Assembly (NCBI GenBank): GCA_038131935.1
Contig: JAYPQH010000010.1
Location: forward strand, 1 to 64,000
Length of the DNA stretch: 64,000 bases
Reading direction: 5' to 3'
Origin: Alphaproteobacteria bacterium
GTDB taxonomy: Bacteria > Pseudomonadota > Alphaproteobacteria > UBA8317
The translations under genes were made by a program, and so were the position numbers. Positions 7,024 to 32,606 of the stretch are shown here, piece by piece; positions within the stretch are counted from its first letter, which is position 1, and the number at the start of each line of letters is the position of its first letter. Under the pieces are notes generated by a model. That model saw only the letters and a program-made list of their open reading frames with translations. It had not been told where the DNA came from and made no database searches.

Positions 7024-7659
7024 GTTATACAAATCCTTGTTTTGGCTGAATGATGTCTCATTGCGCAAATTTCTGAGAGCAATCCACAGCTTGTGAGTTG
7101 GTCAAGGTCCGCTTGTTTTGACCGTTGAACCAGTTGTTCCATTACAGGAAAAAAGAGAGTGGAGTATAATTTGTCCATCGGTTTGACCAATTGGAACAAG
7201 TCTTATGCCAATTGAGATCCAATTGCTTATGATACTGTGAAGATAGGCCGAACTTACCCGGTCGATATCAAGATTCAAACGCTTGATATATGTCCAACAA
7301 CAACGGGTAACGGGCTAAGTGACGTGAATTCCATAGATTTTATTGATGTTATGGGCGAATGCGAAACCTTGATCTTCCGTCTCTTTTCTTCTTGATTGAG
7401 ATGAAGCCAGTGCCACGGCGAGGTCTTTTGTGTCTTGTCCAAAGTAACTCGCGCGCAAAAGAAGCAAATCGTTCCAACTACTACCTTGCTCAACAAGGTT
7501 ATGAAGGTATTGTTTGAACGTATCGCAGTCAGCAATCAAATGATCTTTGATGGCCTGCTCAATCCCATGGCTAAAGGCAAATGCACCCGTTGGAAATGTT
7601 CCTGAAAACATTGCCAGAATTTGATGTAGGGGCATGTCAGTGGCTGTGTTTGTGATCAT
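7020..7659 (-). CDS. ureF: Urease accessory protein; several frameshifts; start uncertain
   Basis: [17 protein letters not shown]-terminus; [12 protein letters not shown] and AMRH...TRI C-terminus in other frames; stop overlaps the ureG ATG. Confidence 0.88.
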
Positions 7660-8092
7660 GAGTTCGTCCATGGCCATATGCACCTCCTTCCGGGTCAAAC
7701 GGTGCGGATACCTCTTCAACTTCACCACCGAGTAATTTTAGCATCTCGGCGATGACATGATCATGTCTGATCAACAAATGACCGTCCTTTACAGAACATG
7801 GCAGGTGGCGATTGCCGATATGCCAAGCAAGTTTGGCAAGATGCTGGCTGTCATGGGCAACCACCTTGAGCAATTTTTCTTCAGCTGCGATTACCAGTAA
7901 TCTTCGGCCATCTTCCAAAACGAGGCTATCACCTGGCTGAATATGCGTTGTTTTTTCAAGGTCAAGCAGAAAAGACATACCCTCATTAGAGCGCATAACG
8001 CGCCTGCGTTGAAAGCGTCCATCATAATCCAGGGTCACTGTTCCCATATGTTCGGAATTACCTGGCGCTATTTTTATGGCACGAATAAGCAT
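7637..8092 (-). CDS. ureE: Urease nickel metallochaperone
   Basis: LAWHIGNRHLP, PFDPEGGAYGH, His-rich tail [11 protein letters not shown]. Confidence 0.96.
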   Translation of the reverse strand: MLIRAIKIAPGNSEHMGTVTLDYDGRFQRRRVMRSNEGMSFLLDLEKTTHIQPGDSLVLEDGRRLLVIAAEEKLLKVVAHDSQHLAKLAWHIGNRHLPCSVKDGHLLIRHDHVIAEMLKLLGGEVEEVSAPFDPEGGAYGHGRTHDHKHSH

Positions 8093-8093
8093 G

Positions 8094-9806
8094 TCAGTAT
8101 AAGAAATATCGTTGTGCCATGGGTAGTTCCTCCGCAGGCTCGCAAGTGAGTAATATTCCATCAGCGCGGACCTCATATGTTTCGGGGTCCACTTCAATGA
8201 AGGGGCGATAATTATTCAACAACATGGAGTCCTTACCTTGCTGCCGGATGTTTTCTACTGCCAAGACTTGTTTTGACAAACCTAATGTTTCTTTAACGCC
8301 AGCTTCAATACTCGCTTTTGAAACAAAAGTGATGGCGTTACGGTTTGCAGGGTGCCTGTGAGCCCCAAACATGGGTCTTGTATAGACAGGTTGTGGTGTT
8401 GGAATGGAGGCATTAGGATCGCCCATTTGAGCTGCAGCAATCATACCACCCAGCAGAACCATCTCCGGTTTTACGCCAAAAAATGCAGGATCCCATATCA
8501 CAATATCAGCTCTTTTCCCTACCTCAATGGAGCCAATATGGTGAGCCATTCCATGGGCGATGGCAGGGTTGATGGTGTATTTAGCCAGGTAACGTTTAAC
8601 CCTTAGATTGTCGTTGTTTCCAATTTCTTCAGGAAGCCTGCCACGTTGTACTTTCATTTTATGTGCAGTTTGCCATGTTCTGATGATGACTTCACCCACA
8701 CGCCCCATGGCTTGAGAGTCCGACGCAATAATTGAAAACGCTCCCAGATCATGAAGGATATCTTCAGCGGCAATCGTTTCCTTTCTTATTCGACTCTCGG
8801 CAAACGCTATATCTTCTGGGATGCTGCGGTCTAAGTGATGGCATACCATCAACATATCCAAATGTTCTTCGAGGGTGTTTCGCGTGTAAGGTCGTGTGGG
8901 ATTGGTAGATGATGGAATGACGTGAGCGGCTCCACAAACTTTGATGATGTCAGGTGCATGCCCACCTCCAGCTCCTTCTGTGTGGAAGGCATGAATGCTC
9001 CGTCCTGCTATGGCGGCGAGTGTATCTTCAACAAATCCACTCTCGTTAAGTGTATCTGTATGAATCATGACTTGGATATCATGTTCTTCAGCCACATTAA
9101 GGCAATTGTCGATGGCTGCTGGTGTTGTTCCCCAGTCTTCATGCAATTTTAATGCGGCAACCCCTGCCAGTACTTGTTCTTGTAGGGGATCCGGCCGTGA
9201 GGCATTTCCTTTGCCTGCCAATGCGATATTCATAGGTATGTCATCGAATGATGATAACATTTGACCAATATGCCATGGTCCTGGTGTGCATGTTGTGGCA
9301 AGGCTTCCATGTGCTGGGCCGGTTCCTCCACCAAGCATCGTGGTGATGCCCGAATGCAGAGCTTCATCAATTTGCTGTGGGCATATCCAATGTATGTGAC
9401 TATCAAAACCACCAGCTGTAATGATTTTCCCTTCACCCGCAATGACCTCTGTTCCCGGTCCAACAATGACATCAACATGCGGTTGTGTATCAGGATTTCC
9501 AGCTTTACCTATTGCAGCTATATTCCCGTTTTTTAGCCCAATATCCGCTTTGTAAATCCCACTCACGTCAACAATAAGTGCATTGGTGATAACTGTGTCC
9601 ATAGCCCCTTCAGAACGAGTATGTTGAGATTGTCCCATCCCATCGCGCAACACTTTGCCACCACCAAACTTTGCCTCTTCACCATAGGTCGTAAAATCCC
9701 GTTCTACTTCGATAACAAGGTCTGTATCAGCAAGTCTCACCCGGTCACCTGTTGTTGGACCATACATAGCTGCGTAAGCTTCTCTAGAGATCAATCTTGG
9801 CATCAA
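8094..9806 (-). CDS. ureC: Urease alpha subunit
   Basis: [45 protein letters not shown]. Confidence 0.99.
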
Positions 9807-16086: not shown

Positions 16087-17352
16087 TTAGTAGTTCGAAG
16101 TAAGTTGGATGCAGGTTTTGGTCTTTGTGTTGTACATACCGCAACCCAATGATTGCCAATCGGAAACCAACTCAGCTGACTCGGGGAGATAGTCTGTCCA
16201 AGCATCACCTGGAACTTCGGCTGTTTGACTGATAATATCAAATTGCCCGTCTGACTGGATCTCGCCAATAAGGACTGGTTTTTTTAGGTGGTGGTTGGGC
16301 AGCATTTCGGCGGTGCCACCTGTAAGGTTGGGAAATGTTTGACCATACATGGCCTTGCGAACAGCGTCGACGTCAGTTGTGCCGGCTTTTTCAACGGCAT
16401 TAACCCACATGTTAAACCCGATATAGTGAGCTTCCATAGGGTCATTGGTAACCCGGTTAGCCCCCATTTTTGCCTTCCATTTCTTTACAAATGAGGCATT
16501 GGCTTCATTTTTTGATGACTGAAAATAATTCCATGCCGCCAAATGGCCAACGAGGTTGCTTGTATCAAGGCCTGACAATTCTTCTTCACCCACAGAAAAA
16601 GCGACGACGGGTATATCATCTGCCGAAACACCTGCTGCTGCTAATTCCTTGTAGAAGCCGATATTGGCATCGCCATTGATGGTTGATATGACACCAACTT
16701 TTTTTCCATCTGCGCCCAAGGCTACAACATCAGCAACAATTTTTGACCAATCGTTATGACCAAATGGCGTGTAATTCACAAAAATATCGCTAGCAGGAAT
16801 CCCCTTGTCTTTTAGATACTGTTCAAGAATCTTGTTCGTGGTTCTGGGATAAACATAATCGGTTCCCAACAATGCAAACTTCTCGACCCCAAGTTCCTCA
16901 AGGAAATAGTCCGTGGCGGGGATGGCTTGTTGGTTAGGCGCAGCACCCGTGTAAAAGACATTTTTTGAAGATTCTTCTCCCTCGTATTGGACAGGATAAA
17001 ACATCAAGCCATTCAGCTCTTCAAGCACAGGTAATGCAGACTTTCTGGAAACCGATGTCCAAGCGCCAAAAATTACATCAACATTTTGAACCGTTAGCTA
17101 CTCGCGCGTTTTTTCTGCGAACAAGGGCCAGTCTGATGCAGGGTCAACAACGACAGGAACAATTTTCTCACCCAAAAGTCCACCTTTGGCGTTCTGCTCT
17201 TCAATCAGCATCAGCATCGTATCTTTGAGTGTGGTCTCCGATATGGCCATGGTTCCGGAGAGCGAATGTAGAACGCCTACCTTTATATCTGCCAGTGCTG
17301 CAGATAAGCTTGTTGTTAGTGTAAGTGCGGTAATTAAAGCAATTTTTTTCAT
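16087..17352 (-). CDS. urtA: Urea ABC transporter periplasmic binding protein, interrupted by an in-frame TAG at 17098-17100
   Basis: Signal peptide, [58 protein letters not shown]; both ORF pieces share one frame. Confidence 0.93.
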
Positions 17353-17364
17353 GACTTAACTTTC

Positions 17365-17427
17365 GATTACAGGTTGGTTTGAGAAGGGGGGTACTCCTTC
17401 CGCCCCGTTTGAGTACGGGCCGTAATC
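17365..17427 (-). promoter_or_regulatory. Candidate structured cis-regulatory RNA in the urtA leader
   Basis: Outer helix GAUUACGG/CUGUAAUC enclosing hairpins CCCGU/ACGGG and GAAGG/CCUUC, plus complementary GUACUC/GAGUAC; ends 12 nt before the urtA ATG. Confidence 0.5.
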
Positions 17428-17479
17428 ATTAGTTAGGTATCTTGGGTGTTGCTGTCTGCCGCATATTTATCACATAGAT

Positions 17480-17496
17480 GGTGCATGAATTGCACC
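17480..17496. promoter_or_regulatory. Putative LysR recognition site
   Basis: Dyad GGTGCA-TGAAT-TGCACC containing T-N11-A, between divergent urtA and LysR genes. Confidence 0.5.
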
Positions 17497-17508
17497 GGCA
17501 GGGGACAA

Positions 17509-18402
17509 ATGAGGCATTTACAGAGTTTTCGATACTTAAAAAGCATTGTTGAAACAGGTTCAATAAGAGGAGCTGCTGATAATCTTGCAATTTCTCCTTC
17601 TGCACTCAATCGGCATATCCAAACGTTAGAACAAGATATCGATATAAAAATATTTGAAAGATTGACGCATGGTGTTCGTTTGACCCCGGAAGGCGAAATG
17701 TTTTTTGCATACGCTCTTGACCAATTATCTGGTTATAAATTGCTCCGCAATGAAATTGCCAATGTTCGTGGGTTGCAAATTGGGAAGATAAATTTTGCAG
17801 TCAGCAAGGATATTATGCTTCAACCAATCTTACCGTTAATAACATTATTTCAAGAAGACTACCAAAATGTTGAGATTGAATTGTTTGTGCTTGATCCCAT
17901 CAGTATGTTTCAATCATTACGTAACGGGGATCTGGATATGGCTTTGTGCGTAAATCCAAATCTACATAGAGGTCTTACAGTTCTGGGTGCAAAAAACACG
18001 CCAATACAATCATTTATTCCTAATGGGGTTCCTATTTCAAAGTCAGGTATCATGAGGATGTATGAATTGAACGGTATTAGAGTGGCCATGCCACCTCTCG
18101 AGTCAGAGACGGCGCAACGTGTGGTTGCTGGGTGTGAAAGGTCTCATATTGATATTAAGATATCCTATTCAGGGCCTAATATTGCTGAGTACTTGGCCCA
18201 TAGTTCGTTTCCAGTTAGTGGCTGTTTCATGGTATTGGATGGTGGAAAGGAGCCCTATCAAATATCTGGATACAAACGAGTGGCTCTTGATGAAAAAGAA
18301 ATTGGTAGTTGCACCATGACCGTATTAGCCAATGATGAAAAAAGGCTAACAAGACCAGGGCATCGTTTTCTCCGTTTGCTGTTGGCAGCACTAGAGTCAT
18401 AA
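17509..18402 (+). CDS. LysR-family transcriptional regulator
   Basis: N-terminal HTH GSIRGAADNLAISPSALNRHIQTLEQ...FERLTHGVRLTPEG; about 297 aa. Confidence 0.93.
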   Translation: MRHLQSFRYLKSIVETGSIRGAADNLAISPSALNRHIQTLEQDIDIKIFERLTHGVRLTPEGEMFFAYALDQLSGYKLLRNEIANVRGLQIGKINFAVSKDIMLQPILPLITLFQEDYQNVEIELFVLDPISMFQSLRNGDLDMALCVNPNLHRGLTVLGAKNTPIQSFIPNGVPISKSGIMRMYELNGIRVAMPPLESETAQRVVAGCERSHIDIKISYSGPNIAEYLAHSSFPVSGCFMVLDGGKEPYQISGYKRVALDEKEIGSCTMTVLANDEKRLTRPGHRFLRLLLAALES

Positions 18403-18456: not shown

Positions 18457-19764
18457 ATGGCAAAGACACTAACCACTTCGCTTCAACCGGCGCAAAAGGC
18501 ACGTGTTAAAAATTGGGCAAAAGCACAAATCATTGAGCGCGCTTCAATTTTTCAAATGTCACCAGATGCTCTTTTTCATTATTTGCATAAAGAAGCAGAG
18601 ATGAATCCCTTTCTTAATTGGAAGCCAACGCATGCGGTATATCCCTATTCAGAATTTCAAAAGCATGAAGACAGTTTTTGGGTGCAACTCGCCAAACAAA
18701 TTGACGAGAATCTTTCAGATGCGCATGAGCGATCATGCGCACATCTTTTGCTTGAAGAGCTTGATAGCACAGGGCGGCTTGAAAAAAATGCACTGCCGAT
18801 GGTGGTGGCTCGTGGGTTTCCAGAGGGTTTTGTTAAAAAAGTCATTGAAAAATTGCAGCGTTTTGAGCCTGCGGGTGTGTTCGCACTTAGCGTTGCCAAC
18901 CAGTATCAACTTCAGCTTCTCGCAGCAGGGTTTCGTAAAACAGACTTATGTTACAAATTAACGATGTATTGGGACGTCTTGCTTGCAAAAGGTCTTCGCC
19001 ATGTTTCTATTGAACTGCATGAGGGTGTAGAAGATTGTCGTAACGCGCTGCAATTATTGGTTCGCCATGGCGGACCACTGCAAATAGAGCCTCAGGAGAT
19101 TGGGGTAACATCACAGGAAGTCACTATTTCATCTTTAGACCCTGTAAAAATCACGATAAGAGACGATTGGAGTGATATGGTTTCATTGGATGAAACACTC
19201 AAAGATCAGGCGCATTTTTTTCAAGGTAATGCACAAGAAGCAAAACAGTTATTATTAAAGGCCCGTCGCCTCATAGAATTGGTGCATCAGCGCAAGAAAA
19301 ATATACGTGAAGTTTCTTACCATGCTGCGCGTTTACAAAAAGAATTTTTACAAAGCTCTGCCAATAATCGCCGTGTTTTGAGTATGCAGACATTGGCAAG
19401 CCTTGCTGATGTGTCTTTGTCTACAGTTTCGCGTCTTTGCGACTATCTGGTGCTGTCATTTAATGGACGAAATATTCGGTTGCGTAACCTTATTATGCGT
19501 TCATTGGCGCGAAATGAACAAGGAGATGAGCTTTCATCAGATCAGCTTATTCATTTTCTAAAGAATAAAATTATACATGAACAACACCCATTGAGCGACC
19601 ATCAATTGGCGTACGCACTACAAAAAGAAGGATTTTGTCTCACACAGATGAGTATAGGACGTTACCGAAGGCATTTGCGCATACCAGACTGCCGTGCGCG
19701 GCGTGCATGGGTTCGATATTTGCCTCACGAACCTCGTTACTGGTTAGATGATTTGCGAATGTAA
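18457..19764 (+). CDS. Highly divergent sigma-54 (RpoN)-like protein
   Basis: NPFL, LDSTGRL, LQRFEPAGVFA core-binding motif, QR..I, STVSR HTH, PLSD..LA..L...G.......YR..L.IP....R C-terminal domain; RpoN box degenerate. Confidence 0.8.
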   Translation: MAKTLTTSLQPAQKARVKNWAKAQIIERASIFQMSPDALFHYLHKEAEMNPFLNWKPTHAVYPYSEFQKHEDSFWVQLAKQIDENLSDAHERSCAHLLLEELDSTGRLEKNALPMVVARGFPEGFVKKVIEKLQRFEPAGVFALSVANQYQLQLLAAGFRKTDLCYKLTMYWDVLLAKGLRHVSIELHEGVEDCRNALQLLVRHGGPLQIEPQEIGVTSQEVTISSLDPVKITIRDDWSDMVSLDETLKDQAHFFQGNAQEAKQLLLKARRLIELVHQRKKNIREVSYHAARLQKEFLQSSANNRRVLSMQTLASLADVSLSTVSRLCDYLVLSFNGRNIRLRNLIMRSLARNEQGDELSSDQLIHFLKNKIIHEQHPLSDHQLAYALQKEGFCLTQMSIGRYRRHLRIPDCRARRAWVRYLPHEPRYWLDDLRM

Positions 19765-24827: not shown

Positions 24828-24953
24828 GTTTTTATAAAAATCCATCAGTGTTTTTGGCATATTCTGCAGGGCAAAAAGCGATCTCTCGATTAGGGCTGCT
24901 GGTATCATATAATGATGTAGCAAATGTAGTGAGAAGCCTCACAACCTTGTCTT

Positions 24954-32245: not shown

Positions 32246-32569
32246 ATGGCAAGTAAGCCTCGTGTGAAAGCGCCCCGCAGTGCAAGTGTTGGTGAGGTGG
32301 TTACGATCAAAACTTTGATTAGCCACAAAATGGAAACTGGTCAGCGTAAGGACAAAAGTGGAAATGTAATTCCACGTAAAATTATCAATAAATTCGAATG
32401 TACATTCAACGGAGCTTCCGTTTTTAGTTGCGATATCCTACCGGCTGTTTCTGCCAACCCATATTTGCAATTCACCATGAAGGTTCCTGGTGAAGGTGAG
32501 TTTTTGTTTAAATGGACAGATGACGACGGCAGTGTTTACGAGAAAAAATCAAACCTCAAGATAGCTTGA
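32246..32569 (+). CDS. soxZ: Sulfur carrier partner SoxZ
   Basis: IKTLISHKMETGQRKD, AVSANPY. Confidence 0.97.
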   Translation: MASKPRVKAPRSASVGEVVTIKTLISHKMETGQRKDKSGNVIPRKIINKFECTFNGASVFSCDILPAVSANPYLQFTMKVPGEGEFLFKWTDDDGSVYEKKSNLKIA

Positions 32570-32579
32570 GGATGGTATT

Positions 32580-32606
32580 TTGTGGCGGTGAGTATCATCG
32601 CCACAA
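32580..32606 (+). terminator. Stem-loop between soxZ and soxA
   Basis: TTGTGGCGGTGA-GTA-TCATCGCCACAA followed by TTCTTT. Confidence 0.55.

Follow-up and report, generated by a model that had tools for sequence, protein, structure and literature searches.

An apparently orphan structured leader behind a conserved, putatively LysR-controlled urtA promoter in an alphaproteobacterium

The 63 nt that end just before the start codon of urtA in the window analyzed here (the whole 64,000-nt stretch of an alphaproteobacterial contig) are most likely an orphan structured leader. The urtA promoter upstream of them is most likely controlled by a divergently encoded LysR-type regulator, judging from conserved sequence boxes. 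The reading that we favor, at roughly even odds, is that of an orphan leader structure of moderate stability behind this conserved promoter, with hairpins that have ordinary leader roles. The 63 nt would make up most of the short 5' leader of the urtA-ure mRNA (about 60-85 nt), directly downstream of the promoter. The LysR-type regulator would bind the conserved boxes and set urtA transcription, and probably would also control its own gene. With a start near 17424..17421, the 5' arm of the outer helix P1, GAUUACGG, would largely be promoter or +1 DNA, and the mRNA would carry two consecutive hairpins, P2 and P3, in place of a closed three-way junction. P2 would be a 5'-proximal hairpin slowing 5'-end-dependent decay, and P3 a hairpin with a C-rich loop that lies immediately before the ribosome footprint and tunes translation or stability. 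Metabolite sensing would not be involved, and the long inverted repeat around the hairpins would be lineage-specific. Ordinary bacterial 5' leaders have 5'-proximal stabilizer hairpins and helices over the ribosome-binding site, and the present leader is like them in its shortness, its hairpins near the 5' end and a 3' arm adjoining the ribosome-binding site. It differs from them in that its own ribosome-binding site is weak and is covered only marginally, and its effect on stability or translation is a predicted one.

The features of the element, all on the minus strand, which is the urtA-sense strand, are as follows.

17365..17427, minus strand: the element, an outer helix P1 closing hairpins P2 and P3
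17427..17420 with 17372..17365, minus strand: P1, the outer helix of 8 bp, with arms GAUUACGG and CUGUAAUC
17404..17419, minus strand: hairpin P2, CCCGU-ACUCAA-ACGGG, whose loop contains the first CUCAAAC
17382..17401, minus strand: hairpin P3, GGAAGG-AGUACCCC-CCUUCU, with a C-rich loop
17357..17435, minus strand: extended inverted repeat, UAACU-AA-UGAUUACGG ... CUGUAAUCG-AA-AGUUA, its 3' arm reaching to 5 nt before the ATG
17367..17429, minus strand: a 20-codon open frame, MITARTQTGRKEYPPSQTNL, nearly coinciding with the element

Read from 17427 to 17365, the urtA-sense strand is GAUUACGG-CCCGU-ACUCAA-ACGGG-GCG-GAAGG-AGUACCCC-CCUUC-UCAAACCAAC-CUGUAAUC. RNAfold gave P1 with the two hairpins as both the minimum free energy (MFE) and the centroid structure, in agreement with the preliminary description of this DNA, which had also correctly placed the end of the element 12 nt before the urtA ATG (at 17352) and noted the two copies of CUCAAAC (17413..17407 and 17383..17377) and the complementarity of GUACUC (17416..17411) to GAGUAC (17396..17391). 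The further proposal that the latter two words form a competing helix did not survive: this helix reaches only -11.4 kcal/mol against -20.1 kcal/mol for the MFE fold, a cost of about 9 kcal/mol, and a 6-nt complement between the loop neighborhoods arises in 579 of 20,000 shuffles (2.9%). The element occupies most of the 156-nt intergenic space between urtA and lysR. It is single-copy in its own genome, which excludes a repeat or mobile element. The 20-codon open frame, from 17429 to 17367, has no Shine-Dalgarno sequence before its start and is probably fortuitous.

P1 contains a G-U pair on the urtA-sense strand (G17421.U17371), and a second one (U17428.G17364) lengthens it; beyond an AA/AA internal loop a further 5 bp are formed by UAACU (17435..17431) with AGUUA (17361..17357). 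On the sense strand each of the two non-Watson-Crick positions is a G-U pair, which hints at selection at the level of RNA. The mRNA orientation had been favored in the preliminary description, and the two G-U pairs uphold that preference, whereas the energy does not: the 63-nt fold has -20.1 kcal/mol (z -2.11; 7 of 200 shuffles as stable), the 88 nt that include the flanks have -25.6 kcal/mol (z -3.13; 1 of 200), and the opposite strand folds better than either, at -34.6 kcal/mol (z -3.61). Folding energy thus does not decide the strand, which is chosen by the two G-U pairs only. When 80-nt windows across both strands of the 64 kb were corrected for composition, 130 of 12,784 equaled or exceeded the element, which places it in a 1% tail, and structure beyond chance is only moderately clear. 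The most stable of these composition-corrected windows are those at 24891-24941 (both strands), 32531-32581, 21981 (minus) and 42811 (minus), with z from -4.4 to -6.0; the first of them, situated between convergent genes, is a possible terminator.

These figures bear on the explanation that the inverted repeat and hairpins are fortuitous, being functionless sequence in an intergenic region that evolves fast, an explanation which we regard as unlikely. It would accommodate the 1% tail, given that dozens of sites in the 64 kb equal the element in stability, the 7 of 200 shuffles that match the exact 63 nt, the orphan status of the element, and an operon which in the assembly has a stop and frameshifts (see below). 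However, the duplex of the 5' and 3' arms is stronger than expected from shuffles (p = 0.008), both G-U pairs fall on the sense strand, and P3 has counterparts in kin. The leader is also identical in four other samples, where about 1.6 differences were expected, a deficit that is not significant.

The element comes from a 2.48-Mb assembly of 67 contigs that is 89.9% complete, and its genus holds one other genome, the remaining relatives being kin of the same class. That sister genome (G001, 84% complete) has no UrtA match, and its LysR paralogues are only 21-24% identical to the window protein, so that there is no close same-genus comparison. A 401-nt DNA query against 40 relatives matched only the urtA coding sequence in one of them (G035). 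We collected 160 urtA loci from genome and metagenome contigs, with UrtA proteins 83-93% identical (93% and 88% for the closest from genome and metagenome contigs, respectively), and word searches for the element drew in nothing from 80 urtA loci. The extended junction was also cast as a covariance model (R1; 17357..17435, 79 positions, 25 pairs). In the window R1 recovers only the element itself, at 112 bits; at E <= 10 it has no match among 161 other urtA loci (the 160 and one further locus, L172), and 150 further same-class genomes gave no match either. When 11 lysR-linked loci are aligned, conservation stops at about 17431, and the sequence downstream of it, P2 included, is not conserved. 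Since the junction has no homologue in these sets, neither P1 nor P2 can show covariation. The preliminary description had staked its proposal on conservation among urtA leaders; for the three-way junction as a whole this is absent (0 of 161 loci), and what stands of it is the second hairpin, P3, which has counterparts at the same place in the nearest lysR-urtA loci. Four sequencing runs show no variants inside 17353..17508, which, with about 1.6 expected, is uninformative as a test of covariation.

The element had further been taken as a variant or new RNA that senses nitrogen status, or else as a leader bound by a protein. A cmscan search against Rfam 15 (E <= 10), with a 1,201-nt query and with a 131-nt query under the laxest filters, matched no riboswitch class, including the glnA RNA, Downstream-peptide and ykkC/guanidine-I families among which the preliminary description had suggested looking. 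The sole near-match inside the element is to L31-Firmicutes (17.5 bits against a threshold of 33.3), by way of GGGCGGAAGGAG; a match to fstAT (14.9 bits, threshold 72) is on the opposite strand and overlaps only at 17425..17427. None of the sRNA families in Rfam matches the element. The glnA RNA (glutamine-I riboswitch, RF01739) carries GGGCGGAAG and has a P1 of the CGUU/AACG type. The likeness of the element to it and to Downstream-peptide, which stems from the preliminary description, lies in nitrogen-related genes, the idea of three stems and a short string rich in G. The element differs in that the covariance model of the glnA RNA does not match the 131-nt query at E <= 10, in that P1 here is GAUUACGG/CUGUAAUC, the CGUU/AACG P1 being absent as had been remarked at the outset, and in that it has no homologues to reveal a family's conserved core. 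A terminator or attenuator was also considered and rejected; the scan placed none in the leader and gave one match only, at 17286..17306 on the plus strand. With no Rfam match, and with the junction model finding none of the 161 other urtA loci and none of the 150 same-class genomes, a strict riboswitch sensing a nitrogen metabolite is very improbable. Among the papers listed for urtA together with LysR or a riboswitch, none came up that describes this leader or names a LysR protein as the regulator of urtA.

Regulation of urtA is explained more simply by a protein, because a LysR-type box and promoter are conserved upstream. The genes and sites concerned are the following.

16087..17352, minus strand: urtA, urea ABC transporter substrate-binding protein (TIGR03407, E 1.7e-113)
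17509..18402, plus strand: divergent LysR-family regulator gene, an open reading frame all of whose top NCBIfam matches are to LysR-family models, each scoring below its cut-off
17480..17496, either strand: LysR-type box GGTGCAATTCATGCACC, with the T-N11-A core TGC-N7-GCA at 17494..17482
17448..17459, minus strand: conserved box GCAGACAGCAAC, with AGAC invariant and the flanks nearly so
17430..17435, minus strand: TAACTA, candidate -10 hexamer, exactly 17 nt after CAGACA

On the minus strand urtA is followed in the operon by urtB, C, D and E and then by ureD, A, B, C, E, F and G, down to about 6400. Orthologues of the regulator are encoded divergently from urtA in L007 (50% identity to the window protein), L090 (37%), L112 (35%) and L027 (34%), and five further loci have weaker LysR orthologues with 28-33% identity over part of their length. 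The family of L007 has a LysR match in 2 of 132 genomes, L007's own genome counted, the other genome contributing the lysR-urtA locus L172. In the order of L007, 5 of 401 genomes match, those of L007 and L027 counted; L175-L177 are loci from this order, in which urtA is divergent from a LysR gene whose product has 36-37% identity. LysR queries found nothing in metagenome contigs or plasmids and, at E <= 1e-40, nothing in 400 same-class genomes. The divergent layout is kept in 13 other loci (L007, L172, L090, L112, L027, L159, L020, L009, L033, L077 and L175-L177), which share a module whose T-N11-A and GCAGACWGCAMC boxes are a fixed distance apart, corresponding to 17440-17500 of the window.

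The aligned intergenic block of these loci is of fixed length and reads GGTGCA-N7-(T)GCAAC, followed by an A/T-rich stretch and then GCAGAC(A/T)GCA(A/C)C. The TGC and CA columns of the first box are invariant in all 11 lysR-linked loci of the alignment, and both boxes are also present in L175, L176 and L177; the T-N11-A box and the GCAGACAGCAAC box are therewith common to 13 other lysR-urtA loci. The TGC-N7-GCA box lies about 33 bp upstream of the second box, and this spacing is fixed across 14 loci. LysR-type divergent promoters have a T-N11-A recognition box and a promoter-proximal activation site, and the present region is like them in its divergent lysR gene, its T-N11-A box and its second, promoter-proximal conserved box, the GCAGACAGCAAC box being a candidate for the activation site and/or the -35 region. 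It differs from them in that its own regulator has no named NCBIfam equivalog above its cut-off, and the regulator's role is predicted. The module combines a sporadic distribution with a well-defined conserved operator, and it differs from the NtrC control of related bacteria: published work describes NtrC, not a LysR protein, as the urt/ure regulator in Rhizobiales and Rhodobacterales (PMC5343134). As things stand, the plausible-looking set of stem-loops downstream of the module, an orphan, is not to be filed as a new nitrogen riboswitch.

A TAAC, TTAC or TAG word occurs at 17-nt spacing after CAGAC(A/T) in nine of the ten correctly anchored loci (it is absent from L020 and L033). By reading, L009 has a TAAC-type word at the same spacing, and L175 (with TAG one base later) and L177 (with TTAG) also fit the 17-nt register. 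The T of this word is nearly invariant (T78 in the alignment of 11 lysR-linked loci), and downstream of the word the alignment dissolves. We infer that CAGACA and TAACTA could represent the -35 and -10 elements, with +1 near 17424..17421, inside the 5' arm of P1. A scan for the sigma-70 consensus over 17200..17700 gave no promoter-like site, and the proposed promoter rests on conservation, not on a consensus match. By reading, no sigma-54 promoter was seen in the lysR-linked group. In other urtA groups compared by eye (for example L021, L023, L024, L036, L058, L080 and L082 versus L026, L056, L062 and L071), the upstream signals appear to differ: some seem to have TGGCA-N-TTGC sigma-54-like sites, and many Rhodobacterales urtA loci have GCAAC...GTTGC palindromes and CCCUCC...GGAG pairs adjoining the start codon.

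The position of the 5' end decides whether P1 exists. Its pairing probability is 0.95-0.99 with a start at 17427 or upstream, 0.08 at 17426 and 0.0 at 17423, and with a start inside its 5' arm the three-way junction cannot form. An alternative -10, CAAGAT at 17445..17440, is in register with T-rich hexamers of the relatives; were it the -10, the start would be near 17434 and the whole junction would be kept. We consider a 5' end at 17426 or downstream somewhat favored on balance, and one at 17427 or upstream the less probable placement, if a possible one. The element does lie in the 5' leader on the urtA-sense strand. In three RNA libraries, each from a different study, there are contigs that cover urtA in its 5' part and enter the element, reaching 17390, 17407 and 17411. 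The ends at 17407 and 17411 are within 4 nt of each other, lie inside P2 and show no loose ends, whereas a DNA contig continues past them, and we see in this a weak hint of an RNA end near 17407/17411; it should be noted that contig ends cannot map a start, and that DNA carry-over is possible in RNA libraries. None of the three libraries has a contig covering 17412..17502, an absence that proves nothing.

If transcription started at 17428 or upstream, the full three-way junction would form, and it might serve as a cis-regulatory switch in which the outer helix and its extension hold the pre-start region and a ligand, temperature or a protein shifts the balance. For this the high pairing probability of P1 with such a start, the two sense-strand G-U pairs and the arm duplex (p = 0.008) can be adduced, and so can the folds of certain relatives. 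A pyrimidine-rich stretch after the TAAC-type word can pair with the Shine-Dalgarno region, around one or two hairpins, in L007, L172, L177, L175/L176, L020 and L009, with CUCUCUC/GAGAGAG of L007 being replaced by CCCUC/GAGGG in its relative L172. Comparable layouts, with an outer helix around two hairpins and its 3' arm on the Shine-Dalgarno sequence, are present in the MFE folds of L007, L112, L172, L176 and L177. Per-locus shuffles, however, gave p < 0.05 only in the element's own locus, L009 and L077 (n = 11). Cognate pairing across 14 loci was stronger than non-cognate pairing (mean -8.39 versus -6.92 kcal/mol, p = 0.021), but without the own locus this falls to p = 0.12; pairing of the 5' segment with the ribosome-binding region is not significantly common to the relatives. 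Should these pairings in the relatives be real, the start would lie upstream of the TAAC-type word and the -10 assignment would be wrong. Furthermore, the mean unpaired probability over -15..+3 barely changes with the start, being 0.47 for 17435 and 0.54 for 17423. The junction has no homologue, no covariation for P1 or P2 and no Rfam class; the predicted promoter cuts P1, and the invariance of 17353..17508 in the four runs means that natural variation offers no test. We accordingly judge a switch of this kind to be quite unlikely.

P3 is the only part of the element with counterparts elsewhere. We counted hairpins that have a stem of 4 bp or more and CCC in the loop in the MFE fold of the 95-nt leader, a criterion defined after seeing the data, over 153 leaders, having dropped loci whose extracted upstream stretch was shorter than 300 nt. 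Such a hairpin is present in all four loci of the nearest clade (the own locus, L007, L090 and L112), in none of the six other lysR-linked loci and in 3 of the 143 remaining urtA loci; L172 and L177 also have one. C-rich words as such occur in 23 of 153 leaders as against 11 of 148 control regions further upstream, an enrichment of about two-fold. An identical loop, AUCCUCCC, is found on different stems 20-26 nt before the ATG in L090 (1142-1157), L112 (1116-1135) and L177 (1319-1336, minus strand; fetched afterwards). RNAalifold on these three hairpins gave 5 pairs, two of them with compensatory changes, and the 10-nt core of the AUCCUCCC hairpin recurs at only two other places in the approximately 0.94 Mb searched, both in coding sequence. 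By reading, UCCUC in the loop of L177 is complementary to GAGGA of its own ribosome-binding site. When the P3-like hairpins from five loci were aligned with MAFFT, the result was structurally inconsistent, and pairs were not counted on it.

These observations could mean that P3 alone is functional, as the local form of a motif of lysR-linked urtA leaders whose C-rich loop docks a trans-acting RNA or protein or pairs with the ribosome-binding site, everything else in the element being incidental. The contrast between the nearest clade and the other urtA loci, the hairpin of L172, the shared AUCCUCCC loop with its compensatory pairs and the complementarity within L177 all point this way. On the other side, the sample is small, amounting to about five kin lineages, and the loop test, set after the fact, was passed in one of the two new lineages, L175 and L176 having a UUCCUUCC loop with no CCC run instead. 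The own loop, AGUACCCC, shares only 4 of 8 positions with AUCCUCCC, and nothing near the weak ribosome-binding site of the own leader is complementary to it. Homology of P3 with the AUCCUCCC hairpins, by position and shape, is plausible; we treat the C-loop hairpin shared by relatives as a lead, not a finding, and hold it rather doubtful that P3 is the sole functional part.

A broader, tentative and to us rather improbable proposal is that lysR-linked urtA leaders carry a small and so far undescribed cis-regulatory RNA, namely a hairpin with a C-rich, anti-Shine-Dalgarno-like loop (AUCCUCCC in three lineages) placed 20-35 nt before the start codon and framed in some lineages by a 5' segment pairing with the ribosome-binding region, of which the own three-way junction would be a diverged, lineage-specific elaboration. 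If true, urea uptake would be controlled post-transcriptionally as well as by LysR, by way of pairing of the loop with the ribosome-binding site, a trans-acting partner or a ligand. AbcR and the 'cuckoo'-type sRNAs of alphaproteobacteria have anti-Shine-Dalgarno loops of the CCUCCC type that act in trans on the ribosome-binding sites of their targets. The leader hairpins resemble them in having a C-rich loop on a hairpin and in the context of a gene for an ABC-transporter binding protein; they differ in that the loop is here within the mRNA leader itself and that no Rfam sRNA matches. The AUCCUCCC-loop hairpin of these few leaders is in any event a cheaply testable by-product.

Returning to the favored reading, of an orphan leader behind a LysR-type promoter, the state of the gene it precedes should be noted. 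In the assembly urtA has an in-frame TAG at 17100..17098, whereas four of four runs (three RNA libraries and one DNA) have A instead of T at position 17099, giving TTG (Leu), and the RNA-library contigs cover this codon. The urtA of the population is thus intact at this codon, and the TAG reflects either an error of the assembly or a nonsense mutation particular to the strain. In comparison with the proteins of L007, urtB is spread over three frames (breaks at about 15020 and 14286) and urtC over two (about 13666), so that the operon as assembled contains either assembly errors or decay; the open reading frame of ureF (7315..7728) encodes only 137 aa. Just downstream of lysR, a 435-aa open reading frame (18457-19764, plus strand) matches the sigma-54 model TIGR02395 with 132 bits against a cut-off of 277, and may be a divergent or degenerate rpoN-like gene. 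The Rfam family 5_ureB_sRNA (RF02514) matches 9362-9650 on the plus strand, antisense to ureC, with 103.7 bits, a match that is probably due to the conserved coding sequence of the urease alpha subunit and not to an sRNA gene.
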